Positions 42,261 through 61,196 of a stretch of DNA of 64,000 nt are shown here, piece after piece. A model generated the notes under the pieces. It made no database searches, was not told the DNA's origin, and saw only the letters and a list, made by a program, of their open reading frames with translations. The position numbers and the translations under genes are program-made. Position 1 is the first letter of the stretch; each line of letters begins with the position of its first letter. The DNA comes from Escherichia phage phi456, in the sequence record OR339795; one strand, given 5' to 3'.

Positions 42261-42479
42261 GAATAAACCGGCCAACAAAGCCGGTTGGAAGGAAGTCATA
42301 TTATTCTACGCTTTCGATAAGAAGACCATGTTCATAACATTTAAGCTCATCGCCTTCATACAGGAATTGGTATCCAACACCACCATCTTCATGGACATTA
42401 GGGAATAACTCATAACTCACTGAAGTGAACCGCCCCGGGAATCCTGGAGACTAAACTTCCTGAGAAAGAGGTAAACAGG

Positions 42480-42806
42480 ATGACTAAAAATACTCGTTTT
42501 TCCCCCGAAGTCCGTCAACGGGCAGTTCGTATGGTTCTGGAAAGTCAGGGCGAATATGACTCACAATGGGCGGCAATTTGTTCCATTGCTCCAAAGATTG
42601 GCTGTACGCCAGAGACTCTGCGCGTCTGGGTTCGCCAGCATGAGCGGGATACCGGGGGCGGTGATGGTGGGCTCACCACCGCTGAACGTCAGCGTCTGAA
42701 AGAGCTGGAGCGTGAAAATCGTGAACTGCGCCGCAGTAACGATATCCTTCGCCAGGCTTCCGCTTATTTTGCGAAGGCGGAGTTCGACCGCCTCTGGAAA
42801 AAATGA
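42480..42806 (+). CDS. IS629 transposase OrfA
   Basis: 108 aa [21 protein letters not shown]... HTH and leucine zipper. Confidence 0.85.
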
Positions 42807-43591
42807 TGCCACTGCTGGATAAGCTGCGTGAGCAGTACGGGGTCGGACCGGTATGCAGCGAACTGCATATTGCCCCGTCAACGTATTACCACTGTCAGCA
42901 ACAGCGACATCATCCGGATAAACGCAGTGCCCGTGCGCAGCGCGATGACTGGCTGAAGAAAGAGATACTGCGCGTATACGATGAAAATCATCAGGTGTAC
43001 GGTGTGCGTAAAGTCTGGCGTCAGTTGTTACGGGAAGGTATCAGGGTGGCCAGATGCACTGTGGCACGTCTCATGGCGGTTATGGGACTTGCCGGTGTTC
43101 TCCGGGGTAAAAAGGTCCGTACGACCATCAGCCGGAAAGCCGTTGCCGCAGGCGACCGCGTAAACCGTCAGTTCGTGGCAGAACGTCCTGACCAGCTGTG
43201 GGTAGCTGATTTTACTTACGTCAGCACATGGCAGGGCTTCGTCTATGTGGCGTTCATCATTGATGTATTTGCCGGATACATCGTGGGGTGGCGAGTCTCA
43301 TCGTCTATGGAAACGACATTCGTGCTGGATGCACTGGAGCAGGCGTTGTGGGCCCGCCGGCCGTCCGGCACAATCCACCACAGTGATAAAGGTTCTCAGT
43401 ATGTATCGCTGGCCTACACGCAGCGGCTTAAGGAAGCCGGCTTACTGGCCTCAACAGGAAGTACTGGTGACTCGTATGACAACGCGATGGCGGAGAGCAT
43501 CAATGGTCTTTACAAAGCGGAGGTAATACACCGTAAGAGTTGGAAAAACCGGACAGAAGTGGAACTGGCCACACTAACGTGGGTGGACTGG
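42803..43591 (+). pseudogene. IS629 transposase OrfB, truncated by IS2 insertion
   Basis: DDE transposase frame diverges after ...TLTWVDW at the IS2 boundary; the remaining C-terminus ([28 protein letters not shown]) is found at 44923-45030. Confidence 0.8.
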
Positions 43592-43602
43592 TGGATTTGC
43601 CC

Positions 43603-44508
43603 CTATATTTCCAGACACCTGTTATCACTTAACCCATTACTGGCCTGCTGCCGCAGATATTCCCGTGGCGAGCGATAACCCAGTGCACTATGCGGATGCC
43701 ATTCGTTATAATGCTCGAACGCCTCTGCAAGGTTCTTTGCTGCCGTTAACCCGTCTGGTTTAGGCATGATACTGATGTAGTCACGCTTTATCGTTTTCAC
43801 GAAGCTCTCTGCTATGCCGTTACTCTCTGGACTCCGCACCGCCGTGTTCTTCGGTTCAAGCCCCAACATCCGGGCAAACTGCCGTGTTTCATTAGCCCGG
43901 TAGCATGAACCATTATCCGTCAGCCACTCTACTGGAGACGCCGGAAGCTCGTTGCCGAAGCGGCGTTCCACCGCTCCCAGCATTACGTCCTGTACTGTTT
44001 CACTGTCGAAGCCGCCCGTAGTGACTGCCCAGTGCAGTGCCTCACGGTCACAGCAGTCCAGCGCGAACGTGACTCGCAGTTTTTCTCCGTTATCACAGCG
44101 GAACTCGAACCCGTCAGAGCACCATCGTTGATTGCTTTCTTTCACGGCCACTTTGCCAGTATGTGCCCGTTTCGATGGCGGTACAGCGGTTTTTCGCTCA
44201 AGCAACAGCGCATTCTGGCGCATGATCCGGTAAACACGTTTGGCATTGATCGCAGGCATACCATCAAGTTCGGCCTGTCTGCGAAGCAGCGCCCATACCC
44301 GACGATAACCATACGTGGGCAGCTCTCCGATAACATGGTGTATACGGAGAAGCACATCCGTATCATCTGAGTGACGGCTGCGGCGACCATCTTTCCAGTC
44401 ATCGGTTCGTCTGAGAATTACGTGCAACTGCGCACGCGACACCCGGAGACAACGGCTGACTAAGCTTACTCCCCATCCCCGGGCAATAAGGGCGCGTGCG
44501 CTATCCAC
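43603..44508 (-). CDS. insD: IS2 transposase InsD (OrfB)
   Basis: 301-aa DDE transposase recognised as IS2 OrfB. Confidence 0.9.
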
Positions 44509-44876
44509 TTTTTTGCACGCCCGTATTCAACGGCTTCTTTAAGGAGTTCATTTTCCATCGTTTTTTTGCCGAGCAGGCGCTGGAGTTCTTTAATCTGCTT
44601 CATGGCAGCAGCAAGTTCAGAGGCAGGAACGACCTGCTCTCCTGCGGCCACAGCAGTAAGACTTCCCTCCTGGTATTGCTTGCGCCAGAGAAATAACTGG
44701 CTGGCTGCCACACCGTGTTGCCGGGCAACAAGGGAGACCGTCATTCCCGGTTCAAAACTCTGCTGAACAATAGCGATCTTTTCCTGTGTAGTACGCCGTC
44801 TGCGTTTCTCCGGTCCTAAGACATCAATCATCTGCTCTCCAATGACTAGTCTAAAAACTAGTATTAAGACTATCAC
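44466..44876 (-). CDS. insC: IS2 InsC (OrfA)
   Basis: 136 aa [24 protein letters not shown]... Confidence 0.9.
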
Positions 44877-45071
44877 TTATTTAAGTGATATTGGTTGTCT
44901 GGAGATTCAGGGGGCCAGTCTAACTGGTATAACAATCGACGATTGCTGGAAAGGCTGGGCCATATTCCTCCGGCAGAAGCAGAAAAAGCTTATTATGCTT
45001 CCATCGGAAATACTGATCTGGCAGCCTGAGTTCACAGATAAAACACTCTCCAGGAAACCCGGGGCGGTTCA

Positions 45072-45254
45072 AACTGCAGTTGCCATGTTTTACGGCAGTG
45101 AGAGCAGAGATAGCGCTGATGTCCGGCAGTGCTTTTGCCGTTACGCACCACCCCGTCAGTAGCTGAACAGGAGGGACAGCTGATAGAAACAGAAGCCACT
45201 GGAGCACCTCAAAAACACCATCATACACTAAATCAGTAAGTTGGCAGCATCACC
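45072..45254 (-). mobile_element. IS1 left-end fragment (about 183 bp including the inverted repeat)
   Basis: Sequence identical in kind to the insA-proximal end of the full IS1 copies, ending ...GTTGGCAGCATCACC; truncated by IS629. Confidence 0.7.
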
Positions 45255-45462
45255 CAGGTGCTGGTGAGAATGAGTGCAAGGACGGCTGAAGAATATTTTT
45301 TCATACCAACACCTTCTGTAGGTTAAAAAGAGAGGAGCTTTTCCGGAGTTATATTAATAATTCATTCATCAGAGAAAACTGTTTTTTTGTTACGGCAATA
45401 ATAATGAGACAATTCCTGGTAAGCCCGGTGCCGTTCTACGGTTGCACCGGGAGGGCTGGAAC

Positions 45463-45777
45463 TCAGTGCGGAGATTTTTTACCATCCTGGCGATATAAAT
45501 GATCATGTGCTGTTTTGCGATCCCTGTATATGCCCATTTCTTTTTCCGTCTGTATTGCAGAACTGCGTAATAATCTGAAGGAGAACTCTTCCTGGCTGGT
45601 TGCTCTCTGTGATTTCATTTTTGCACGTTTCAGGCAGTGCTGTATCCGTCTCTGGATACAGATCCGATCATCTTCCTGCAGGTAGTTCAGCAGCAATTCC
45701 TGCCAGCGTGCAGCGGCTCTGCGCCATAATCCCCGCTGTTTGAGCTCTTCAGCTTTTTTATCAGTAATCATATTCAC
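45463..45777 (-). CDS. PerC/Pch-family transcriptional regulator-like protein
   Basis: 104 aa; KKAEELKQRGLWRRAAARWQELL matches the PerC-family N-terminal signature as recalled. Confidence 0.55.
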   Translation of the reverse strand: MNMITDKKAEELKQRGLWRRAAARWQELLLNYLQEDDRICIQRRIQHCLKRAKMKSQRATSQEEFSFRLLRSSAIQTEKEMGIYRDRKTAHDHLYRQDGKKSPH

Positions 45778-45794
45778 CTCTGCTCTGGTCGGTC

Positions 45795-46595
45795 ATGCTT
45801 TCTTCCCGGTATGTTATAGTTATTAAGATACTTTTGTCCCTGTTCTGTTCCGGAGTGAACATGATTTTTGTCTGTTCTGTTGTACTGGCTGACAAGGCAT
45901 TCACCCTGCAGTTTGCCGGGAAAATGCTGTCCCTTTCTGCAGGAGATGTGCTTCTGATTGATGATACTGATCGTGAGGATTTTCAGCCTCATGCTGCGCA
46001 TATCACTGAGGTGCGGCTGGATGAAAATATCATCCGCAGATATCTGGAGAGTTGTGGCGGCAACCGGGAGGCCGACAACACGGTTTCTTCTGGTTTCATC
46101 AGAGTGGCCTTTGCTCATCCTGCGTTGTTGCGTGACGTTATGCATCATCTGAATTCGGGAGGATTTGTTCATCCCGGATTTTCCGAGCAGATGTTTTTTT
46201 CCTGCATTGCTGTCTTTGCATCAAAAAAAGGCTTTCTTCCTTTGTTGCTGGGCGGAATGCTTTCTGTGGCCGGGAGAGTGAGGCATATCATCTGTACTGA
46301 CTTTTCACGCCAGTGGAAGCTGCGGGATGTCAGCAGTCGTTTGTATATGAGTGAAAGTCAGCTGAAAAAGAAACTGAAGGAAGAAGGATGTTCGTTCACC
46401 GGAGTGCTTCTGGATGTGAGAATGGGCTATGCACGCCGTCTGTTACAGGCCCGTCTGCCGGTCAACAGGGTGGCCGCGCAGTGTGGTTATGTAAGCACAT
46501 CTTATTTTATCTGCGTGTTCAGGGAATGTTTTGGCGTCACGCCTCACCGGATGCTGGCGCTTCAGGAGCACGGGCAGCATAAAAGTGAATGCTGA
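45795..46595 (+). CDS. AraC/XylS-family transcriptional regulator
   Basis: C-terminal dual HTH (...RLLQARLPVNRVAAQCGYVSTSYFICVFRECFGVTPHRM); alternative start at Met 45861; divergent from the PerC-like gene. Confidence 0.75.
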   Translation: MLSSRYVIVIKILLSLFCSGVNMIFVCSVVLADKAFTLQFAGKMLSLSAGDVLLIDDTDREDFQPHAAHITEVRLDENIIRRYLESCGGNREADNTVSSGFIRVAFAHPALLRDVMHHLNSGGFVHPGFSEQMFFSCIAVFASKKGFLPLLLGGMLSVAGRVRHIICTDFSRQWKLRDVSSRLYMSESQLKKKLKEEGCSFTGVLLDVRMGYARRLLQARLPVNRVAAQCGYVSTSYFICVFRECFGVTPHRMLALQEHGQHKSEC

Positions 46596-46754
46596 GTTTG
46601 AATTATTCTGAAGAACGGCGGGCATTTTATGGAAACGGCACATTTCCGTGTCTCTGTGGTCATTCCCGATTGCTGTTGACGCATCGCCACTCACCGGAAA
46701 TGTGCCGGAATATTTTAATCGTTCTTCACCGTCTGTGAAGGTCCTGTGCTTACA

Positions 46755-46950
46755 TTACTGAGCGGAAAATGACCTCAATTTCCTCCTGTGTAGCCTGAAT
46801 CGGGTTTGTCAGACCACATGCATCCTTCAGGGCATTAGCGGCCAGAACAGGGATATCCTCTTCTCTGACGTTCAGGGCTTTCAGACCTGTCGGGATATTC
46901 ACTTTTCCGGCCAGTTCCCTGATTGCAGATATACTGTCAGCGCCAGTGAT
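46755..46950 (-). pseudogene. C-terminal fragment of an iron-containing alcohol dehydrogenase-like gene
   Basis: Minus-strand translation ...[45 protein letters not shown] then stop; N-terminal part is cut by the IS end at 46951. Confidence 0.3.
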
Positions 46951-48420
<1,470 letters not shown>

Positions 48421-48677
48421 GCGTTGACAGCGGGTTCCTGAGTCCGGTGAAGCGCCGGTTACTGGAAAATGTTGTGTACGTCATAACAGAAACGGAGAGA
48501 AAAACGGCGATGCAAATCAGGCGGAGAAGGGTGTATCAGCGGTTACTGAAGGTTGACCCGCTGAAGTGCATCCTGTGCGGAGGTCAGATGCGGTTTACGG
48601 GGCTGAAGCGGGGCTACCGTCTGGCAGAGCTGGTCATGATGCATGAGCCACTGGCACGACAGCGGGTATACAGCTGA
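48421..48677 (+). pseudogene. possible transposase C-terminal fragment (Cys-rich)
   Basis: C-terminal part of ORF 48324..48677, ...PLKCILCGGQMRFTG...; family not assignable with confidence. Confidence 0.2.
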
Positions 48678-48773
48678 GAGCCGCAGAGGGGAAGTTGCGT
48701 CCATTTTTTGAGGAATGGAGCAAAAAATCATCACAGATATAAAAAATCAATCAATGAAAGCCATTTAATTGCC

Positions 48774-53240
<4,467 letters not shown>

Positions 53241-53737
53241 ACTGTTTTTTCTTTAGTGATGCATTTTTTATCAACCATACAAGCACATTATTTCATTGAT
53301 ACCAATCACATCAGGATGAATGTTTTTTCTCAATAGAAATAAGTGTCTTTATTCCTTACTAATTTATTCTGGTTATTCCTCTTATCCAGACGTCTCGTGA
53401 TACTCCCTGTATTTATTATAGAGTATATATATGTACTGCGTTTAAATCATGAAGACGACAACCTGTTTTACATAAATTATTCCTAAGTATTTTTCCAGAG
53501 AAGACCTAGGTATAATGATGTGCACTGTCTGGTTTTCTTACAACTGACTTAGCGATCTGCATATCCGTGATAACGCCTGAATAAATAGGACGAGAGAACT
53601 CTTAACCAAATAATCTAACACTTTTAATCGACAGGAATTAAAAACCCGGGGAGGTTAAAAAAACACAAAAAAATGGTTGTTTATTCAACTCTGGTTACGT
53701 ACCATGAGGACTGCATCCACAATGCACCGGCAATTAA

Positions 53738-54505
53738 GGTAATGACTCCAACTTATTGATAGTGTTTTATGTTCAGATAATGCCCGATGACTTTGTCATG
53801 CAGCTCCACCGATTTTGAGAACGACAGCGACTTCCGTCCCAGCCGTGCCAGGTGCTGCCTCAGATTCAGGTTATGCCGCTCAATTCGCTGCGTATATCGC
53901 TTGCTGATTACGTGCAGCTTTCCCTTCAGGCGGGATTCATACAGCGGCCAGCCATCCGTCATCCATATCACCACGTCAAAGGGTGACAGCAGGCTCATAA
54001 GACGCCCCAGCGTCGCCATAGTGCGTTCACCGAATACGTGCGCAACAACCGTCTTCCGGAGACTGTCATACGCGTAAAACAGCCAGCGCTGGCGCGATTT
54101 AGCCCCGACGTATCCCCACTGTTCGTCCATTTCCGCGCAGACGATGACGTCACTGCCCGGCTGTATGCGCGAGGTTACCGACTGCGGCCTGAGTTTTTTA
54201 AATAGCGGAAAATCGTGTTGAGGCCAACGCCCATAATGCGGGCTGTTGCCCGGCATCCAACGCCATTCATGGCCATATCAATGATTTTCTGGTGCGTACC
54301 GGGTTGAGAAGCGGTGTAAGTGAACTGCAGTTGCCATGTTTTACGGCAGTGAGAGCAGAGATAGCGCTGATGTCCGGCAGTGCTTTTGCCGTTACGCACC
54401 ACCCCGTCAGTAGCTGAACAGGAGGGAGAGCTGATAGAAACAGAAGCCACTGGAGCACCTCAAAAACACCATCATACACTAAATCAGTAAGTTGGCAGCA
54501 TCACC
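53738..54505 (-). mobile_element. IS1 (768 bp), copy B
   Basis: Same orientation as copy A; insB 53753..54256, insA 54175..54450. Confidence 0.9.
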
Positions 54506-54839
54506 GATCATCCTTAGACTCAGGGGCAAAGATTCTGTCTCAGTAAATCAGGCTCTTACCGACAAATTCCTGAGTTTACCGTCAGAACTCAGAAGATCAC
54601 TGACATGGGACAGAGGAATGGAACTGGCCAGACATCTAGAATTTACTGTCAGCACTGGCGTTAAAGTTTACTTCTGCGATCCTCAGAGTCCTTGGCAGCG
54701 GGGAACAAATGAGAATACAAATGGGCTAATTCGGCAGTACTTTCCTAAAAAGACATGTCTTGCCCAATATACTCAACATGAACTCGTCATTGTGGAAAGG
54801 CCGACATCCATAGCGCTGGCTGCATCTACCACGGTGTAA
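54506..54839 (+). pseudogene. IS30-family transposase C-terminal fragment
   Basis: ...VKVYFCDPQSPWQRGTNENTNGLIRQYFPKKT, matching the IS30 transposase C-terminal motif as recalled. Confidence 0.5.
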
Positions 54840-54977
54840 TTCTGGTCAACGACCAGTTGAGCGGATTCGCGTTTAAACTCTGCGCTGAAATTTCTTTTTT
54901 TCATTATGGCACCTGTGTTGTTCTGAGGTGAGCATATCACCTCTGTTCAGGTGGCCAAATTCAGTAAACCACTTCAG
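54840..54977 (-). mobile_element. IS911-like left-end fragment (inverted repeat plus first 21 codons of orfA)
   Basis: Minus strand: TGAAGTGGTTTACTGAATTTGGCCACCTGAACAG... then [21 protein letters not shown]. Confidence 0.55.
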
Positions 54978-55022
54978 AGGGAAACGTTCAAAAGCAACCG
55001 CCGGGAAAATGAAGGCTGAAGG

Positions 55023-55790
55023 GGTGATGCTGCCAACTTACTGATTTAGTGTATGATGGTGTTTTTGAGGTGCTCCAGTGGCTTCTGTTTCTATCAGCTG
55101 TCCCTCCTGTTCAGCTACTGACGGGGTGGTGCGTAACGGCAAAAGCACCGCCGGACATCAGCGCTATCTCTGCTCTCACTGCCGTAAAACATGGCAACTG
55201 CAGTTCACTTACACCGCTTCTCAACCCGGTACGCACCAGAAAATCATTGATATGGCCATGAATGGCGTTGGATGCCGGGCAACAGCCCGCATTATGGGCG
55301 TTGGCCTCAACACGATTTTACGTCACTTAAAAAACTCAGGCCGCAGTCGGTAACCTCGCGCATACAGCCGGGCAGTGACGTCATCGTCTGCGCGGAAATG
55401 GACGAACAGTGGGGATACGTCGGGGCTAAATCGCGCCAGCGCTGGCTGTTTTACGCGTATGACAGGCTCCGGAAGACGGTTGTTGCGCACGTATTCGGTG
55501 AACGCACTATGGCGACGCTGGGGCGTCTTATGAGCCTGCTGTCACCCTTTGACGTGGTGATATGGATGACGGATGGCTGGCCGCTGTATGAATCCCGCCT
55601 GAAGGGAAAGCTGCACGTAATCAGCAAGCGATATACGCAGCGAATTGAGCGGCATAACCTGAATCTGAGGCAGCACCTGGCACGGCTGGGACGGAAGTCG
55701 CTGTCGTTCTCAAAATCGGTGGAGCTGCATGACAAAGTCATCGGGCATTATCTGAACATAAAACACTATCAATAAGTTGGAGTCATTACC
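55023..55790 (+). mobile_element. IS1 (768 bp), copy C, inverted relative to copies A and B
   Basis: GGTGATGCTGCCAACTTACTGAT...GGAGTCATTACC; insA 55078..55353, insB 55272..55775. Confidence 0.9.
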
Positions 55791-55791
55791 G

Positions 55792-56067
55792 GCTGAAGGG
55801 CAGAAAAAAGGTTATCCGGACATGAGTCTCGATAAAGCATGCGGTATTTATCACGGCATGCGAATTGAGCTTAAAGAACCAAATGGTAAAGCCCCGACGA
55901 AAGAGCAGATCGCCTGGATGCGCAGGCTTAGAGAGGAAGGTTACTACGTCGTTCTTGCGTATGGTGCAGAACAAGCGATAACCGCCATCCTGGAATACAT
56001 AAGCCTTAAAAAGGGTGAGGCTATTGAGCATGTATTGAACGGCGATAAGTGGTTGTATGCTGCTTAA
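55792..56067 (+). pseudogene. VRR-NUC-domain nuclease-like protein, 5' end disrupted by IS1
   Basis: ...KKGYPDMSLDKACGIYHGMRIELKEPNGKAPTKEQIAWMRRLREEGYYVVLAYGAEQAITAILEY fits the VRR-NUC pattern; the ORF's first codons lie within the IS1 terminus. Confidence 0.45.
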
Positions 56068-56263
56068 AATAATAAATTAATTAGTGCATATGTGCTCTTT
56101 GATATAGCGCACATTAACATCGGGAGAATAATCGTGTCATTCAAGGCTAATTATGAATCGCTGGCATCGATCATGCCGCGTAATGAACAGGAAGCAGATG
56201 CTGTAGTGGACCCGGTAATCGCTGAAATGAATGCTCGCCTGGAGGCTGAATTTGCAGCTGAGA

Positions 56264-56893
56264 ATGAACATACCACCCAGGGCGACTAGGACTGTTTTTT
56301 GTGTCGGTAGCGGTCCGTCACTCACTCGTGAGGACTGTGCTGCTATAGAAAAAACTGGCTGTTCAATCATCGCGGTTAACAATTCCTGGCAGATGTTCGA
56401 TGACATTTATGCCTTATACGCCGGTGATTTGTCATGGTGGAAGCAATACGGATCCACCATACCGGGAGGGAGATTCCGCAAAGTGACAGCCAACCTGGCG
56501 GCGGCGAAATCATTTTCGTTGGAGTACAGGCGATATTGTGGACCGGCGGAAGGGGTAAATAGCGGCGCGCAGGCTATCAGTCTGGCTGCTGAATCAGGGG
56601 CTGAAGTAGTGGTATTAGTCGGCTATGACTGTTCTCTGCAAAACGGCCTTCATTGGCATGGCGCGCACCCTCAAGCCCTACGGAATCCAACGCAGGTGTC
56701 TATTTCAAAATGGCAACAGCAGTTCCTGGATACCCGCAAAAAACACGCAGATTTACATATTTTGAATGCAAGTAGGAGCAGTGCAATTCAATGTTTCCCA
56801 AGAATAAATTTAGAGGCAGTGATCGCGTTATTATCGTCGGCAGTGGCCCAAGCGCCGCAAACTTTGTTGCGCCGCGCGGAGTGCCGATTATAG
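56264..56893 (+). CDS. GSGPS-motif Rossmann-like protein, paralog 1 (MptE/Maf-like fold suspected)
   Basis: VFCVGSGPSLTREDCAAIEKTGCSIIAVNNSW...; likely start at Met 56264; 3' end overlaps paralog 2 by 103 bp. Confidence 0.4.
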   Translation: MNIPPRATRTVFCVGSGPSLTREDCAAIEKTGCSIIAVNNSWQMFDDIYALYAGDLSWWKQYGSTIPGGRFRKVTANLAAAKSFSLEYRRYCGPAEGVNSGAQAISLAAESGAEVVVLVGYDCSLQNGLHWHGAHPQALRNPTQVSISKWQQQFLDTRKKHADLHILNASRSSAIQCFPRINLEAVIALLSSAVAQAPQTLLRRAECRL

Positions 56894-57417
56894 CGGTCAA
56901 TGGGGCCATCGACTGGCTGAACCGCGCTTCTTATTTTTTCACACTTGATCCATCGCCAGACAATATGCGGCGCGTTGGTCGTGGCCGCCGTCGCCGTGGT
57001 GTTTGTTATTGCATGGCACTACCCGATGTTAAAGAACGTGAAGTCAGAGACGGCGTTCTGTGCTTCCGTCGTGTGGCTGAACGTGGCATGGAGCCAAAAA
57101 ATACGAATTCTCCCGAGTGGTGGGCGTGGCGCTGGTCCGCACATTTCGGACTTTGCGAAGATGAGAATGAAATTGCCAGCGGCAATAGTGCATATGGCGC
57201 TCTGAACCTGGCTTTCCATATCGGATTCAAACATGTCGCCCTGGTGGGCGTTGACGCTACACAAGAACCACGCGTTCACTCCGGCGGCACGCCAAAAAAT
57301 CTAAGTCACCTGCCTTTGTTATTCCAGTCTGCGCGTGAACGGATTGACGTTGTTTCATGCGGGAAAATGGGAGGTATTCCGCAGATGACTCTTAAAGAAT
57401 GGCTGAAGAATACATGA
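56791..57417 (+). CDS. GSGPS-motif Rossmann-like protein, paralog 2
   Basis: [30 protein letters not shown]...; the same motif layout as paralog 1. Confidence 0.4.
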
Positions 57418-58091
57418 TGGCACCAACAATTTATCACCGTATCGACGGTACCAAATACAGGAATATCTGGGTTGTTGGTGATCTGCATGGTTGCTACACC
57501 AGACTGATGTCCGAACTCCATCGTGTGGATTTTGACCCGGCGCAGGATTTACTGATATCGGTCGGCGACCTTATCGATCGCGGTACTGAAAATGTCGAAT
57601 GTCTGGAACTATTGCAGATGCCCTGGTTCAGGGCAGTAATGGGGAACCATGAGCGGTTGATGCTCGATGCGTTAAGTCCTGATGGCAACGTGAATAACTG
57701 GCTAATGAATGGCGGACAATGGTTCTTCATGCTGGACACTGATCAGGAAATATTAGCCAGGGCGCTGGTGGAGTTGGTAAGACGACTGCCCTATATCATT
57801 GAGTTGAACACCGGGCAAGAAACTATCGTTATAGCCCATGCCGACTATCCGGATAATGAATATCAATTCGGTAAGGAGGTGCCGCTTTTCAACGTTGTCT
57901 GGGCGCGCGAGCGTATCAGTGATTCGATGGATGATATTGGTGGCGAAATTTCGGGCGCAGATCGTTTTATCTTTGGTCACACTCCGGTGAAAAGCCCGAA
58001 GACATTCTGGAATCAGCATTATATCGACACTGGTGCCGTATTTTGCGGAAACCTGACATTGATGAAAGTGAAAGGTGATGGTGCAGCATGA
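57399..58091 (+). CDS. PPP-family Ser/Thr protein phosphatase (lambda-phosphatase/PrpA-like)
   Basis: Motifs GDLHG, GDLIDRG, GNHE present in order. Confidence 0.8.
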
Positions 58092-58741
58092 AGATTGCTT
58101 TAGTTCTTCGCTCTGGTGGCGACTATAACGCTTCCGATGTGCAGTGGCTGGTTAATCAACTGCCAAAAGGCTATGAAATTATTTGCCTGACAGACCTGAA
58201 GCGTTTACATGTACCTGGCGTCAAAGTTATCCCATTGATCAACCAGTGGCAAAAGTGCCGTGGCTGGTGGGCGAAAATCGAGTTGTTCCGACCGGATATA
58301 ACCGATGATCTGTTCTATCTGGATTTGGACACGGTTATTGCCGGTGATATACGCCCAATCCTTGAGAATCCACCAACCAGCTTCACCATGCTTAGGGATT
58401 TTTACCATCCACAATATCGTGGTAGCGGTGCCCTGCGGATACCAAATAGTGTAAAAGCGCATATCTGGAGTTCATTCTGGCAAGATCCGGAAGGTTGGAT
58501 TTCTCGTTGTGTCACTACTGAGTGCTGGGGTGATCAGGGGTTCTTACGGAAGGTTATGGGCGATGATACACCAGCATTTCAGGATCTGTATCCAGGATGG
58601 TTTGTAAGTTACAAGGCCGATGTTGTGGAACCTGGTTCAAAATATGCGAGCGCGCGTTACTCCAGGGGGAATGGGGCATTACCAAAGGACTGCCGAATAA
58701 TTTTTTTCCACGGCAAACCGCGACCTCGCGAAGTGTCATAG
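58088..58741 (+). CDS. hypothetical protein with DXD motif (possible nucleotide-sugar transferase)
   Basis: 217 aa; [12 protein letters not shown]; translationally coupled to the phosphatase gene. Confidence 0.3.
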
Positions 58742-58790
58742 GATTGGCTTCCCCTTACCAGCTCGTTTTTTGAGCAAGAATCAGAATAAT

Positions 58791-58856
58791 ATTGCTCTAA
58801 TAATTCCATGTTTTTAAAACGCGATGTACACTCATCACGTTTTTTATTAGAGCAAT
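58791..58856. promoter_or_regulatory. pair of inverted C1 operator-like sites
   Basis: ATTGCTCTAATAATTCC (58791-58807) and inverted TTATTAGAGCAAT (58844-58856), flanking a putative promoter for the downstream operon. Confidence 0.5.
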
Positions 58857-58870
58857 CCATAAGGTGCACT

Positions 58871-59089
58871 ATGTGGCCATTCCGACGGAAATATCACTAC
58901 TGGCTGATCGCCTTTGTTACGCCGACCGGCGGTATCAGGCATGTCATTACCAGGTATCGCAACAAGAGACTCACCTTAGCCAGAATTTTACAGGCTGCCA
59001 TAGGTGAGGGACTGGATACAAATTGCGTAGTCCTTCCACCTTCATACTTAGGAAAAATGACCGAAGCACAAGCTAATACGGAACTTTGA
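58871..59089 (+). CDS. small basic protein, first gene of the C1-operator-associated operon
   Basis: 72 aa from Met 58871 (RBS AAGGTG); stop 1 nt before the next ATG. Confidence 0.3.
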   Translation: MWPFRRKYHYWLIAFVTPTGGIRHVITRYRNKRLTLARILQAAIGEGLDTNCVVLPPSYLGKMTEAQANTEL

Positions 59090-59090
59090 A

Positions 59091-60353
59091 ATGAGCACTT
59101 CAGCACAAAACCAATCAATCGAAAATGTATCTATCCCTGACGTCCTGAATGCCGGTATCCCGGCCATTATCCAGAACATCCGGGCCGCGCAACGCCGCGT
59201 TAGTTGTGATGACCTCACAGCGCGTTTTTTTGATAATGCGGTTCAGTCAGCGGAGATGCTTCACGCACAGCTTATTGATGTTTATAACGCAGAAGCTGAT
59301 AGCCATAACTCCCTGGTAGATGCAGCTGAAAATATGCAGTTGGATCTTGGTCTGAAGGGTAAAGAAATTGAAGAGCTTCAGCTGCAAATTGAACATTTGA
59401 AACGCCAGCAACAGGACGCGATCGACGATGCGACGCATGACGCCAACCAGCGTGCTGATAATGCCGAACGTATAAGCATTGAGCTGGAAACAAAACTCAA
59501 TGAAATGACCGCGATGGTTGAACTGCGGAACTCACAGATTTCAACGCTAAAATCTCAATATAAAGAGATCATGAAACTTGATCCTTTTAACCTTGAGAAA
59601 CGCTATAACAAAGCTAAAAGCGAGCGACAGGAACTGCGTAAGCAGGTCGCCGACCTTAACCAACAGTTCAAAAAAACTATTAAAGATGCAAGCGAAGCGC
59701 GCGTGGCATTTGCTAATAAAAAAGCAGAGGTTACCGCGCTGGTTAATGAGAATGCCAAATTTGCGACGCTCAAGAAGGAAATGTATGGCATTACTGAGCG
59801 CCGTTTCCCTGCAAGCAAACTTCATCCGACGTTAGGGCAAATCTCCTTCTTCCCGCGCCTCCTGGCTTATGGGATCTCATCGCCTAAAGAGTTCAATAAC
59901 GAGCGTCCTTATATCGTTTCTAAGCTGGACTTTGCTTATCAGTTCTGCTGCGACATGGGCTATGCCATTGATATCCGAATCAACGAATGGTTGATGCCAA
60001 ACTTCCAGCCGTTGGCCATTTTCCGCGAGTTCCAGCCGGAAGGTTGGGTAGAGTTCTTCCATGAATTGATCTGTAAAGAGATGGAAAGCCGCCGCCCGGA
60101 ATTGGTCCGTCGAGTTGAGTGGGCGCAAGAGGTTATGTTGGCAGATGCAGAGCTGCCGTTCGAACCGGAATTCATTGATGATCTGGCAACTAAAGGGTTG
60201 CATACCCTGTTTGATGTGGTTACCCGCCGTCATGAGCAGTTGGTTGTCGAATTGGGTTTAGAGGAAACAGCGGCAAGAAGACTTCTCGATGTTTGCTATG
60301 CACGTAGCGATGCATGGGAAAAAGAGAACGGCGGCACTATTTACGTCCGCTGA
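59091..60353 (+). CDS. hypothetical protein, N-terminal coiled coil plus C-terminal globular domain
   Basis: 420 aa; residues about 40-240 heptad-rich (ELQLQIEHLKRQQQDAIDD...). Confidence 0.4.
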   Translation: MSTSAQNQSIENVSIPDVLNAGIPAIIQNIRAAQRRVSCDDLTARFFDNAVQSAEMLHAQLIDVYNAEADSHNSLVDAAENMQLDLGLKGKEIEELQLQIEHLKRQQQDAIDDATHDANQRADNAERISIELETKLNEMTAMVELRNSQISTLKSQYKEIMKLDPFNLEKRYNKAKSERQELRKQVADLNQQFKKTIKDASEARVAFANKKAEVTALVNENAKFATLKKEMYGITERRFPASKLHPTLGQISFFPRLLAYGISSPKEFNNERPYIVSKLDFAYQFCCDMGYAIDIRINEWLMPNFQPLAIFREFQPEGWVEFFHELICKEMESRRPELVRRVEWAQEVMLADAELPFEPEFIDDLATKGLHTLFDVVTRRHEQLVVELGLEETAARRLLDVCYARSDAWEKENGGTIYVR

Positions 60354-60425
60354 TAGTTACAGTGTCACTTTTAATGCTGGTGGAGTGCGCCCACCAGCAT
60401 TTTTTTCGTCCAATGAGGAGGGCAT

Positions 60426-60932
60426 TTGAGTATTTTCAATAAACACGCACACCAGGAACGTCCGTACATCGTCATAGTAGATATTGATGGAACGATATCA
60501 GAGGCAACGGAAGACAGGCTGCATTTACTTCCACCACCTGGCAAAGGTGCATTAACAGAGCACTGGAACGAGTTTAACCTTGCCTGTGACACTGATGCTC
60601 CCATCACTCCAGTTATTGATATGGTGCGCCAGTTGTCCAGCATTTACACGCTCTGGTTTGTAACCGGGCGCTGTGAGATAGCCAGGGATAAAACACGAGC
60701 TTGGTTGCGTAAGCACGTAACAAACGGGGCTGAGCCTTTGCTATCTATGCGTCCTGCCACCGATGACAGAAATGACGGCCCAGCAAAGATTGATCTCCTT
60801 AAGAAAATTGGTATAAGCAAAATTGCGTTCGCGCTGGAAGATAAGATTGAAGTGGCGCATGTTTTCAGGAGGCACGGCGTGCTTACGTTAATGGTCAGGG
60901 AGTATGAAAATGCGCTTCTTCATCAACAATAA
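60426..60932 (+). CDS. HAD-superfamily phosphatase-like protein
   Basis: 168 aa; motif I VIVDIDGT (DxDGT), later FVTGR and K...D elements. Confidence 0.5.
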   Translation: MSIFNKHAHQERPYIVIVDIDGTISEATEDRLHLLPPPGKGALTEHWNEFNLACDTDAPITPVIDMVRQLSSIYTLWFVTGRCEIARDKTRAWLRKHVTNGAEPLLSMRPATDDRNDGPAKIDLLKKIGISKIAFALEDKIEVAHVFRRHGVLTLMVREYENALLHQQ

Positions 60933-60947
60933 TTGCTCTAATAAACC
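60931..60947 (+). promoter_or_regulatory. C1 operator-like site
   Basis: AATTGCTCTAATAAACC, overlapping the stop of the HAD-like gene and upstream of the small peptide ORF. Confidence 0.5.
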
Positions 60948-61030
60948 ATGATTTTTAAAAAAGAGAAAGTGAAAATAAAAACATGCCGCAAGGCGCGGCA
61001 TGTATCCAATCAATCACAGGAGCTGAAAAT

Positions 61031-61117
61031 ATGAACACGGCATTCAAAATCATTATGGCCGCGATCTATTTCTGGCTGTTCTCTATCACTTTTGGCGGCA
61101 TCGTCGCGCATGGGTAA
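61031..61117 (+). CDS. 28-aa hydrophobic peptide (candidate small membrane toxin or leader peptide)
   Basis: MNTAFKIIMAAIYFWLFSITFGGIVAHG; strong RBS AGGAG 9 nt upstream; structured leader CATGCCGCAAGGCGCGGCATG; not in the ORF track (under 60 aa). Confidence 0.35.
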   Translation: MNTAFKIIMAAIYFWLFSITFGGIVAHG

Positions 61118-61196
61118 GGGGAGTATATTAGCCATTTGAAACCCCACGGTCTCTTGCGGGTTTAATTAAGAACCCGCAAGAAAAACACGAATTGGG

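Follow-up and report, generated by a model that had tools for sequence, protein, structure and literature searches.

The pmgM′–pmgQ region of Escherichia phage phi456: a slightly decayed P1 operon with a candidate glycan-building enzyme core

Genes and features of the locus

The DNA analysed here is a 64,000-nt stretch from Escherichia phage phi456 (record OR339795; hereafter, the window). A sequence-only reading of the window had listed five genes of unknown function between positions 55,792 and 58,741. All of the ORFs that it described are present on the + strand (the VRR-NUC remnant, PmgO, PmgP, Ppp and PmgQ), but it overlooked a sixth gene, pmgN. The region corresponds to pmgM′-pmgN-pmgO-pmgP-ppp-pmgQ of phage P1, and alignment with P1 (AF234172, 79152–84482) gives 98.2% identity and zero indels. 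The locus is a slightly decayed copy of an already catalogued P1 operon (Table 1). The reading had asked whether the cluster might match well-characterised P1 genes with assigned roles; the genes are indeed those of P1, but no role has been demonstrated for them. Its view that the cluster is not morphogenetic agrees with knockouts and CRISPRi in P1, where pmgM, pmgO, pmgP, ppp and pmgQ are dispensable (PMC9024508), and a morphogenetic role is not demonstrable. The same study reports no phenotype for the P1 knockouts, and virion proteomics of P1 does not mention glycosylation. Directly downstream of the pmgN–pmgQ operon in P1 lies pmgR, a head-completion gene (PMC9024508). No anti-phage defence model in PADLOC was matched by any of the six proteins. 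The prophage surrounding the locus has lost tail genes.

Table 1. Positions of the features in the window
Feature	Position	Strand	Basis
Internal pmgM fragment left of IS1 (P1 79115–79160)	54977..55022	+	Alignment to P1
IS1, 768 bp, in pmgM; insA/insB on + strand	55023..55790	+	Terminal repeat, ORFs, target duplication
pmgM 3′ part, VRR-NUC, C-terminal ~92 codons	55791..56067	+	PF08774, phrog_2363, alignment to P1
Predicted sigma-70 promoter PpmgN (−35 56035–56040, −10 56056–56061)	56035..56061	+	P1 annotation
C1 repressor operator Oppp, one mismatch to P1	56074..56090	-	P1 annotation via gap-free alignment
pmgN, 51 aa, acidic	56134..56289	+	P1 annotation, phrog_2350
pmgO, MptE-like/DUF115-fold, Maf/Cst-like	56231..56893	+	Profiles, homologues, predicted structure
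pmgP, distant pmgO paralogue with ~35-aa insertion	56791..57417	+	Profile comparison, predicted structure
ppp, lambda-PP/PrpA-like Mn-dependent Ser/Thr phosphatase (predicted)	57399..58091	+	PF00149, NF008516, phrog_246
pmgQ, GT8-like DxD glycosyltransferase (predicted), nonsense-truncated	58088..58741	+	Profiles, alignment to P1
	58871..59089	+	P1 annotation, alignment, PMC9024508

The first gene had been taken for a nuclease-fold protein disrupted by IS1, and both points hold. The element lies inside pmgM with a perfect terminal repeat at 55023–55045, flanked by a 9-bp target-site duplication, GGCTGAAGG, at 55014–55022 and 55791–55799. The cluster start given earlier, 55792, falls one base inside the right copy of this duplication. 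pmgM has also been cut a second time: homology to P1 starts abruptly at 54977 (P1 79115), beside IS3/IS30 remnants, and the first 88 codons are therefore gone. The ORF to the right of IS1 (limits 55777/55791–56067) has no amino-acid differences from the corresponding part of P1 PmgM and matches phrog_2363 with an E-value of 4.6e-58. It scores 21.3 bits with PF08774, below the cutoff of 23.8 because the remnant is truncated and retains profile positions 59–115 of 116. The PD...ELK core is kept and the N-terminal ~95 residues, start codon and promoter are lost; the remnant is probably inactive. At the other end of the locus, codon 218 of pmgQ is changed from Glu to TAG (E218*, 58739–58741), giving a product of 217 rather than 233 aa; a frame of P1 length would end at 58789. 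The copy in the window is decaying, with pmgM destroyed by IS1 and a deletion and pmgQ deprived of 16 C-terminal residues.

A promoter and a C1 operator separate pmgM from pmgN. The PpmgN sequence is identical to that of P1, and the presence of Oppp implies that the operon would be silent in the lysogen and expressed during lytic growth. No recognisable family was found for pmgN, which is confined to close P1 relatives.

The overlap between pmgO and pmgP, which had been singled out as unusual and as a possible frameshift, is exactly 103 nt (56791–56893). Because the alignment to AF234172 is gap-free, it is also present in the P1 reference genome, and a check of independent assemblies found it unchanged between reference P1 and hundreds of independent contigs. 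It is likewise kept in lineages of ~40% identity, and pmgP always has a start codon of its own; in the window this is an ATG located inside the conserved C-F-P codons of PmgO in the −1 frame. It is extremely improbable that a single gene has been split by a sequencing error or that programmed −1 frameshifting yields a PmgO–PmgP fusion. The −1 register of pmgP relative to pmgO, formal X_XXY_YYZ heptamers at 56794–56800 (T_TTC_CCA) and 56806–56812 (A_AAT_TTA) and a natural in-frame O–P fusion (P0051) all fit such a scheme, but coding in two frames (C-F-P in PmgO and M-F-P in PmgP) accounts for the first heptamer, and the slippery heptamer is absent from loci L207, L213, L220 and L224 despite their long overlaps. 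Elsewhere the overlap shrinks to just 4–13 nt (L209, L214, L217 and L222) or is replaced by a 671-nt gap (L219). A slip at these heptamers would, moreover, remove the conserved C-terminal L-E helix of PmgO, which the natural fusion retains. The overlap is ancient and genuine; misassembly and programmed frameshifting do not account for it.

Families of the predicted proteins

The GSGPS...IAVN motif noted earlier is found in PmgO and PmgP alike, and the proposal that the two are paralogues is confirmed by profile comparison: a PmgO-only alignment, from which the natural O–P fusion was left out, matches the PmgP profile over the full length with an hhalign probability of 98.2% (E = 5.5e-14). Single-sequence searches of the PDB with PmgO, PmgP and PmgQ gave nothing useful. 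In Pfam, both proteins score under the gathering cutoff of 34.6 bits with PF01973 (23.4 bits for PmgO and 21.0 bits for PmgP), and many of their homologues have a precomputed match to this family. The annotated pmgO start is probably too far upstream, as homologues begin near residue 12–24; the alternative ATG is at 56264, and residues 1–20 are of low confidence in the predicted structure. Invariant positions are D66, S111 and D133 in PmgO and D53, S133 and D155 in PmgP.

Structural comparison indicates a fold common to PmgO, PmgP, Maf, MptE and Cst-I, and the MptE/Maf-like assignment first guessed from the letters alone is borne out by both profile and structural matches. The two proteins could be read as diphosphokinases related to MptE and thiamin pyrophosphokinase that activate a small molecule, possibly together with Ppp, and the MptE-like family is indeed their sole Pfam match. 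We regard this as improbable. In the structural comparison, Maf (159–163 residues aligned) and Cst-I (150) match best and over the greatest length, compared with 129–136 residues for MptE; the constant neighbours and fusion partners described below are glycosyltransferases and methyltransferases, and kdsB is among the associated genes. Ppp is missing from nearly all loci, and genes of the pterin or thiamin pathways are absent from the neighbourhood.

The DUF115/MptE-like domain is shared with the Maf flagellin glycosyltransferases (Magnetospirillum, PDB 5mu5; Geobacillus; Clostridium). The acidic residue, Ser and Asp of PmgO and PmgP may correspond to E324, Ser and D415 of Maf, which have been shown to be essential in that enzyme; they occur in equal order and with a Ser-to-Asp spacing of 22 as compared to 23 in Clostridium Maf. 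Sequence identity is, however, only 16–17%. Maf proteins are ~400–650 aa in length with extra flagellin-binding domains, whereas PmgO and PmgP consist of the catalytic domain alone (~200 aa), lack a flagellin context and form a pair of paralogues linked to a GT8-like enzyme. The RefSeq/PHROG name 'alpha-2,3-sialyltransferase' derives from the GT42 enzymes Cst-I and Cst-II of Campylobacter. Against the PDB, the PmgO profile reached Cst-II at non-significant E-values of 0.14–0.7, and the PmgP profile had zero matches. E. coli K-12, on which P1 is classically grown, is not known to synthesise CMP-sialic acid, and the database name is therefore very probably wrong as to substrate.

PmgQ, previously described by its DxD motif, can now be assigned as a glycosyltransferase on the basis of profile matches to GT8 enzymes. 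In the PDB, its profile matches AgtA (E = 2e-7), the GT8 entry 5gvv (7e-5) and glycogenin (1.4e-4). D79-L80-D81 is invariant among homologues and H208, G209, P211 and P213 are nearly so; this DLD and the C-terminal HG.PRPW motif align to GT8 motifs, including those of E. coli WaaJ. By these criteria PmgQ is a divergent GT8-like protein, predicted to be a DxD-dependent retaining hexosyltransferase. It has in common with AgtA, glycogenin and WaaJ/WaaO both the DxD and an H-x-G-x-x-(K/R)-P-W-like C-terminal motif, but the single sequence does not match the GT8 Pfam family PF01501, the protein is ~100 residues shorter than typical GT8 enzymes and it belongs to a large family of its own (4,091 clusters at E ≤ 1e-10).

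The remaining gene, ppp, was correctly recognised as encoding a PPP-family phosphatase. PF00149 scores 59.9 bits against a cutoff of 21.5, and GDLHG, GDLIDRG and GNHE (within MGNHE) can be read in the translation. These correspond to the metallophosphatase motifs GDxHG, GDxxDRG and GNHE of lambda protein phosphatase and PrpA/PrpB, and phrog_246 is NinI-like. Ppp differs from these phosphatases in that its NF008516 score of 279 bits is under the equivalog cutoff of 326 and in that, outside close P1 relatives, it is unlinked to the glycosyltransferase trio. From its distribution, ppp was inserted between pmgP and pmgQ in the P1 lineage and lies outside the conserved module.

Genes that travel together

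The sequence-only reading treated the five genes as one module. We examined co-occurrence in ~200 divergent loci, using coverage-filtered counts and a viral scan with distant lead sequences; the coverage filter was needed because the PmgO ORF also matches the N-terminal third of the PmgP profile. Outside close P1 relatives only the PmgO/PmgP-type proteins and PmgQ co-occur, without PmgM, and Ppp was absent from all non-P1 loci examined. PmgQ adjoins PmgP in 21 of 22 non-P1 PmgP loci, and a DUF115-type partner is present at ~74 of 80 distant PmgQ loci, this partner being PmgO, PmgP or a member of a third clade that is homologous at a probability of 96%. Fusions of PmgQ to a DUF115-type domain account for at least 7 of 18 long PmgQ representatives; others are PmgQ–PmgQ or methyltransferase–(GT9-like)–PmgQ fusions. 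Close PmgO homologues also occur in Enterobacterales prophages, most of them without PmgP or PmgQ. In four bacterial genomes, the trio is found without ppp in a chromosomal adhesin island, where it is interleaved with adhesin genes. The functional unit to which these distributions point is pmgO + pmgP + pmgQ, not the five-gene cluster, and Ppp, PmgN and PmgM may be regarded as P1-lineage neighbours with separate roles.

The module usually follows the major capsid gene or lies among genes for gp6-like connector, head-completion, HK97-gp10 and gp17 proteins. Recurrent neighbours are capsid, portal and connector genes, FkbM/Methyltransf_24-type methyltransferases and other glycosyltransferases, and head or head-tail-joining genes adjoin the module not only in P1 but also in hundreds of unrelated siphophages. 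Four P1-like elements additionally carry kdsB, encoding CMP-Kdo synthetase. In L203 it lies downstream of pmgS (TIGR00466, 270 bits against a cutoff of 155), and homologues are present in L211, L218 and L226; these are the only instances among the examined loci, and all four elements are without ppp.

Candidate sugar, acceptor and competing readings

Taken together, the profile matches and gene associations make it likely that pmgO, pmgP and pmgQ constitute a glycan-building glycosyltransferase trio. Our preferred explanation is that this module acts in lytic growth, possibly with Kdo and probably on a phage protein, and we place its probability at roughly 45%. The three enzymes would jointly build a short glycan, to which a SAM methyltransferase may contribute in many relatives. 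PmgO and PmgP appear closest to Maf and the GT42 sialyltransferases, whose donors are ulosonic or nonulosonic acids activated with CMP, and an E. coli host would generally offer no CMP-ulosonic donor other than CMP-Kdo. For this reason, and because kdsB occurs in P1-like relatives, we tentatively propose Kdo as the most probable sugar used by the Maf-like pair. In E. coli, Kdo supplied as CMP-Kdo can be transferred by Maf enzymes to protein Ser/Thr (bioRxiv 10.1101/2020.06.03.131540).

The choice of acceptor is similarly tentative. The operon would be shut by C1 in P1 lysogens and expressed in lytic growth; this timing, as well as the position beside head and head-tail-joining genes, makes a virion protein the most likely target. 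An analogy may be drawn with the mycobacteriophages, in which glycosyltransferase and O-methyltransferase genes are described as modifying capsid and tail-tube proteins (Freeman et al. 2023, as relayed in PMC11600133 and PMC11256854). Che8, Corndog and the cluster O phages are described there as having tandem glycosyltransferases, often with an O-methyltransferase, that are dispensable in the laboratory. That composition resembles the module considered here, which also adjoins capsid and neck genes. The comparison is between different enzyme families, and the hosts here are Gram-negative rather than mycobacterial. The capsid proteins adjoining the module have no long Ser/Thr-rich C-terminal extensions such as those of the glycosylated mycobacteriophage capsids.

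The main rival to a glycan on phage protein is modification of LPS. The trio would then act on the LPS core of the host or on a different glycolipid of the envelope, for example by adding a WaaZ-like extra Kdo and a GT8-type hexose, and so alter or mask the P1 receptor (an LPS core glucose) in lytic growth; progeny might thereby be spared loss on debris, or superinfecting phages excluded. GT8 includes LPS outer-core glucosyl- and galactosyltransferases, among them the WaaJ with which the PmgQ motifs align, a GT9 heptosyltransferase-like domain is found among the PmgQ fusion partners, and the kdsB genes of relatives would suit this reading as well. The PmgP-type domain is also faintly but repeatedly similar to WaaZ, the KdoIII transferase of the E. 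coli LPS core (WaaZ_KDO_III: TIGR04437, E = 0.11; precomputed PF27901 on the fusion protein), with a likeness that is N-terminal and includes a common A-x-x-x-A-x-x-L-G...G-x-D region. Overexpression of waaZ reportedly truncates the outer core. These scores are, however, far under threshold: TIGR04437 gives 11.9 bits against a cutoff of 200, and hhalign to E. coli WaaZ gives a probability of 13.5–14.4%. C1 repression in P1 lysogens and location in late head operons elsewhere would be poor timing for outer-membrane remodelling and do not resemble lysogenic conversion, and in the four bacterial genomes the trio is found among adhesin genes, not waa genes. We therefore consider action on LPS rather unlikely.

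The sequence-only reading favoured nucleic-acid or sugar-nucleotide modification. If the cluster glycosylated phage DNA bases, for example, the nuclease and phosphatase could belong to the pathway, and a VRR-NUC nuclease and the polynucleotide-kinase-phosphatase-like Pap do lie nearby in P1. Hypermodified bases are not known in P1 DNA. Phage glycosyltransferases that add hexose, heptose or Kdo to 5hmC have been described, but they accompany C5-methyltransferase/TET-type enzymes that make 5hmC, and those adding Kdo or heptose have a GT-B fold (bioRxiv 10.1101/2023.12.21.572611). No companions of this type were found in the ~200 loci: among the annotatable recurrent neighbour clusters there was no C5-methyltransferase with TET/5mYOX or hydroxymethylase, nor any association with DNA-precursor enzymes, and the constant neighbours are instead capsid, portal, connector, methyltransferase and glycosyltransferase genes. 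The nuclease and phosphatase are unlinked to the trio outside close P1 relatives, and the trio also resides in the non-phage adhesin island. DNA modification is thus poorly supported and, in our estimation, very improbable. Since the three-enzyme core recurs beside head genes in thousands of phages, the glycan would most likely be placed on a phage protein rather than on DNA.

For twenty years, the pmgN–pmgQ operon of the workhorse phage P1 has had only the placeholder description 'putative morphogenetic'. The five genes of the cluster can now be reduced to a three-enzyme core that is represented by >4,000 protein clusters, usually situated in head-gene blocks and sometimes fused. Extending the preferred phage-protein reading, P1 and thousands of phages of Gram-negative hosts might attach a short glycan, containing Kdo and in some cases methylated, to head or neck proteins of their virions by means of a dedicated Maf-like/GT8-like module, with the trio recruited by some Enterobacteriaceae for invasin/intimin-type adhesins; in this full form the proposal is doubtful. 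If a virion glycan is nevertheless present, virion glycosylation would extend from the mycobacteriophages to phages of Gram-negative bacteria, the protein–Kdo linkage would be new chemistry and the modification would matter for P1-based delivery vectors and for how antibodies recognise phages used in therapy. If LPS is the target instead, the trio would provide a receptor-editing function expressed in lytic growth.

The P1-derived region and its decay

Window positions 55791–61121 align without gaps to positions 79152–84482 of phage P1 (AF234172) at 98.2% identity, and gene names were transferred to the window ORFs from the P1 annotation. The element is a P1-like phage-plasmid; as sequence, this part of P1 is unremarkable and had been catalogued before. 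The ORFs and the P1 alignment confirm the gene cluster described in the sequence-only reading, including the exact 103-nt overlap; pmgN had been overlooked. Downstream of pmgQ the order continues with pmgR, pmgS and pap.

Features of the pmg region and the adjoining cargo (window coordinates)
Feature	Position	Strand	Remarks
pmgM, 3′ part	55791–56067	+	P1 annotation
pmgN	56134–56289	+	P1 annotation
pmgO	56231–56893	+	P1 annotation
pmgP	56791–57417	+	P1 annotation
ppp	57399–58091	+	P1 annotation
pmgQ	58088–58741	+	P1 annotation
PpmgN, predicted promoter	56035–56061		retained relative to P1
Oppp, C1 operator	56074–56090		retained, one mismatch to P1
IS1 in pmgM	55023–55790	+	9-bp target duplication GGCTGAAGG at 55014–55022 and 55791–55799; checked end to end
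IS1	53738–54505	-	terminal-repeat match; checked end to end
IS1	48774–49541	-	terminal-repeat match
IS1	44487–45254	-	terminal-repeat match
IS30-like transposase remnant	54492–54839		between the last two IS1 copies
IS3 orfA remnant	54773–54940	-	between the last two IS1 copies
Autotransporter, classical, 1165 aa	49743–53240	-	Autotransporter beta-domain, autochaperone AC_1, PATR, VirG insertion domain, Pertactin

Several lesions distinguish this copy from P1. To the left of IS1, pmgM is reduced to 46 bp; P1 homology begins there at 54977, which means that the gene has lost its first 88 codons. The remnant of this VRR-NUC nuclease keeps the PD...ELK core but neither start codon nor promoter. 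The promoter and operator between pmgM and pmgN are assigned by homology to P1. PmgO is identical to its P1 counterpart, PmgP differs by two amino acids and Ppp by four. PmgQ carries five substitutions and a nonsense change (E218, GAG to TAG, at 58739–58741) that leaves 217 residues and removes 16. All 233 residues are present in the nearest PmgQ cluster of the protein collection, which is 98% identical and comprises 2,479 sequences. A W117R change adjoins a nearly invariant position. With pmgM destroyed and pmgQ truncated, the operon in this copy is probably drifting. The true start of pmgO probably lies downstream of the annotated one (region 56231–56300). Its homologues, like the PHROG profile, start near residue 12–25, and the structural model is disordered at residues 1–20; an alternative ATG at 56264 would cut the pmgN/pmgO overlap from 59 to 26 nt.

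The wider element is similarly altered. Positions 1–42425 are P1/P7-like, and about 12.5 kb of non-P1 cargo (42426–54976), bounded and interrupted by IS elements and common on E. coli plasmids, stands in place of about 16 kb of P1. Besides the 1165-aa autotransporter, the cargo carries IS3 and IS1 copies; with the one in pmgM, terminal-repeat matches give at least four IS1 copies. The cargo also encodes regulators that matching plasmids list as helix-turn-helix and PerC-family proteins, one of these being an AraC-type ORF in the window. Of the replaced P1 sequence, the 4 kb that were compared (75115–79114: the final part of gene 6, genes 24, 7, 25 and 26, pmgL and 5′ pmgM) are matched nowhere in the window. 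Given this missing segment and the replacement of P1 genes by cargo, the element appears to be a defective plasmid or prophage derived from P1. The autotransporter gene lies just upstream of the glycosyltransferase operon, a position that is probably an IS-mediated accident.

The P1 label ‘putative morphogenetic function’ was given by position only; RefSeq and PHROGs offer VRR-NUC protein, alpha-2,3-sialyltransferase, ‘norphogenetic protein’, metallophosphoesterase and glycosyltransferase. The literature searched contained no experimental function for the pmgM–pmgQ genes. In a P1 knockout survey, deleting any one of 24 pmg/upf genes, given as a group, impaired neither plaquing nor antirestriction, and essentiality was confined to pmgA, B, C, G and R (PMC9024508). 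A CRISPRi study, whose table cites that survey for pmgL–pmgQ as non-essential, scored pmgM, pmgO, pmgP, ppp and pmgQ as non-essential, but pmgN as essential in contrast to the earlier deletion survey (PMC10695390). The pmgN discrepancy may be a polar dCas12a effect on the downstream operon, or may be real.

Overlap and linkage of pmgO, pmgP and pmgQ

The sequence-only reading had suggested that the 103-nt overlap could mark a frameshift, which might be a sequencing error or a programmed shift yielding a PmgO–PmgP fusion. The pmgP ATG sits inside the conserved C-F-P codons of PmgO (aTGTTTCCCa), and formal slippery heptamers do occur at 56794–56800 and 56806–56812, where they are a consequence of the dual coding of pmgO and pmgP. 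The same layout (-1 frame, overlap of 40–109 nt) recurs in lineages whose PmgO is only ~40–50% identical, and pmgP invariably brings a start codon of its own. Four long-overlap lineages lack a heptamer, four have overlaps of only 4–13 nt, and in one the genes are 671 nt apart. The overlap is thus genuine and of ancient origin, a case of ordinary overlapping, coupled genes; neither a sequencing nor a programmed frameshift is supported.

Linkage was scored with family profiles in ~200 divergent loci. Ppp, PmgN and PmgM accompany the other genes only in close P1 relatives (L202, L216, L224 and L225), and PmgM is also found in some P1-like elements without ppp. PmgQ is adjacent to PmgP in 21 of 22 non-P1 PmgP loci and PmgO usually so (17/22). 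At distant PmgQ loci, a DUF115-type partner is present in ~74 of 80, being PmgO-like, PmgP-like or of a third clade that is homologous to both (probability 96% to PmgP and 88% to PmgO). Gene fusions show the same grouping. One protein (P0051, L003 8001–9131) is an in-frame PmgO–PmgP fusion followed by a pmgQ gene, and the 18 long PmgQ-family representatives include at least seven PmgQ–DUF115 fusions, two PmgQ–PmgQ and two methyltransferase–(GT9-like)–PmgQ. P0051 and the natural PmgQ–DUF115 and methyltransferase–(GT9-like)–PmgQ fusions (P0295, P0305, P0306, P0346, P0384, P0425, P0429, P0393 and P0407) are useful single-polypeptide versions of the module for biochemistry.

The trio also occurs outside phages, in a chromosomal island of four Pseudescherichia/Enterobacteriaceae genomes (L201, identical to L108; L109; L110; L112). 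The order, kept in all four at 73–88% protein identity, is Big_1 protein, 690-aa protein, PmgO, 1166-aa invasin-type inverse autotransporter, PmgP, PmgQ and Big_1 protein. This makes the autotransporter beside the operon in the window a curious neighbour, even if it probably came there by accident. Co-occurrence, fusions and island define the unit as PmgO, PmgP and PmgQ. The proposal that five genes form one module is not supported, since the Ppp phosphatase and PmgM nuclease are lineage-specific neighbours; a promoter and an operator moreover set pmgM apart from pmgN.

Many close PmgO homologues are solitary, in ~40-kb Enterobacterales prophages; one lies between lysis genes and terminase with an adjacent methyltransferase. 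In a Hafnia alvei prophage (L199 9001–11332), the homologue sits between holin and terminase genes and is followed by a 280-aa protein without family, a Methyltransf_23 methyltransferase and a 110-aa protein weakly similar to part of an IscB endonuclease model. Two more distant P1-like elements (L202 1–3730; L203 1–2719) carry a gene for a ~2,260-aa methyltransferase/helicase upstream of the pmgO block, at a distance of a few genes. The protein resembles P1 DarB, whose gene has another location in P1, which suggests a gene order different from that of P1.

Predicted enzymes, donor and acceptor

PmgO and PmgP are real but old paralogues as judged from their sequences: BLAST finds only the N-terminal GSGPS...IAVN stretch (E 0.003), whereas hhalign of clean family profiles aligns them over their full length (probability 98.2%, E 5.5e-14), with a ~35-residue insertion in PmgP. 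AlphaFold models are confident (pLDDT 87.2 for PmgO, 94.9 for PmgP). Maf flagellin glycosyltransferases depend on a conserved Ser, an Asp and a further acidic residue; from order and spacing, the invariant D66, S111 and D133 of PmgO and D53, S133 and D155 of PmgP are plausible counterparts. Pyrophosphokinase chemistry is a less likely possibility for this MptE-like/Maf-like fold. PmgQ has no Pfam match when searched with the window protein, but the profile of its family, a large one with 4,091 clusters at E≤1e-10, matches the solved GT8 enzymes AgtA (2e-7), 5gvv (7e-5) and glycogenin (1e-4), and its invariant D-L-D and C-terminal H-G-x-P-R-P-W align with GT8 hallmarks. Ppp is by sequence a clear lambda-PP/PrpA-like phosphatase (PF00149, 59.9 bits; NF008516, 279 bits, under the equivalog cutoff). 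PADLOC defence models matched none of the six proteins.

Clues to the donor come from kdsB, the CMP-Kdo synthetase gene, which lies a short way downstream, between pmgS and pap, in four P1-like elements without ppp (L203, L211, L218 and L226; L203 10658–11425 scores 270 bits against TIGR00466, cutoff 155). Elements with ppp (P1, L202, L216, L224 and L225) have no kdsB within the stretch examined, a possible either/or pattern among few genomes. Maf enzymes are promiscuous and can transfer Kdo from CMP-Kdo to Ser/Thr in ordinary E. coli. CMP-Kdo is the sole CMP-ulosonic donor known to be universal among P1 hosts, and K-12 is not known to make CMP-sialic acid, so the database ‘sialyltransferase’ label is unlikely to be right as to substrate. 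We propose that PmgO and PmgP would both transfer an acid sugar from a CMP-activated donor, with Kdo the likeliest, and PmgQ a hexose with retention, to give a short glycan made in lytic growth.

The acceptor may, more tentatively, be a phage head or neck protein. Environmental siphophages place the module directly after the major capsid gene, or among gp6-like connector, head-completion, HK97-gp10-like and gp17 tail-completion genes, often with an FkbM- or Methyltransf_24-type methyltransferase. In composition and position it resembles the genes with which mycobacteriophages glycosylate their capsid and tail-tube proteins. Against this parallel, the adjoining capsid proteins have only short, Ser/Gly-containing C-terminal tails, and P1 has no reported glycan. 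The first-ranked rival has LPS or some other envelope glycolipid as acceptor; direct similarity to the Kdo transferase WaaZ of the LPS core is faint and below every threshold. Pyrophosphokinase chemistry for PmgO and PmgP ranks second and glycosylation of DNA third; the latter would call for the acceptor-making enzymes of known DNA pathways, which are absent here. A frameshift fusion ranks last. The comparative evidence recasts a vague ‘enzyme cluster’ as a specific, testable hypothesis, that of a widespread phage glycosylation trio.
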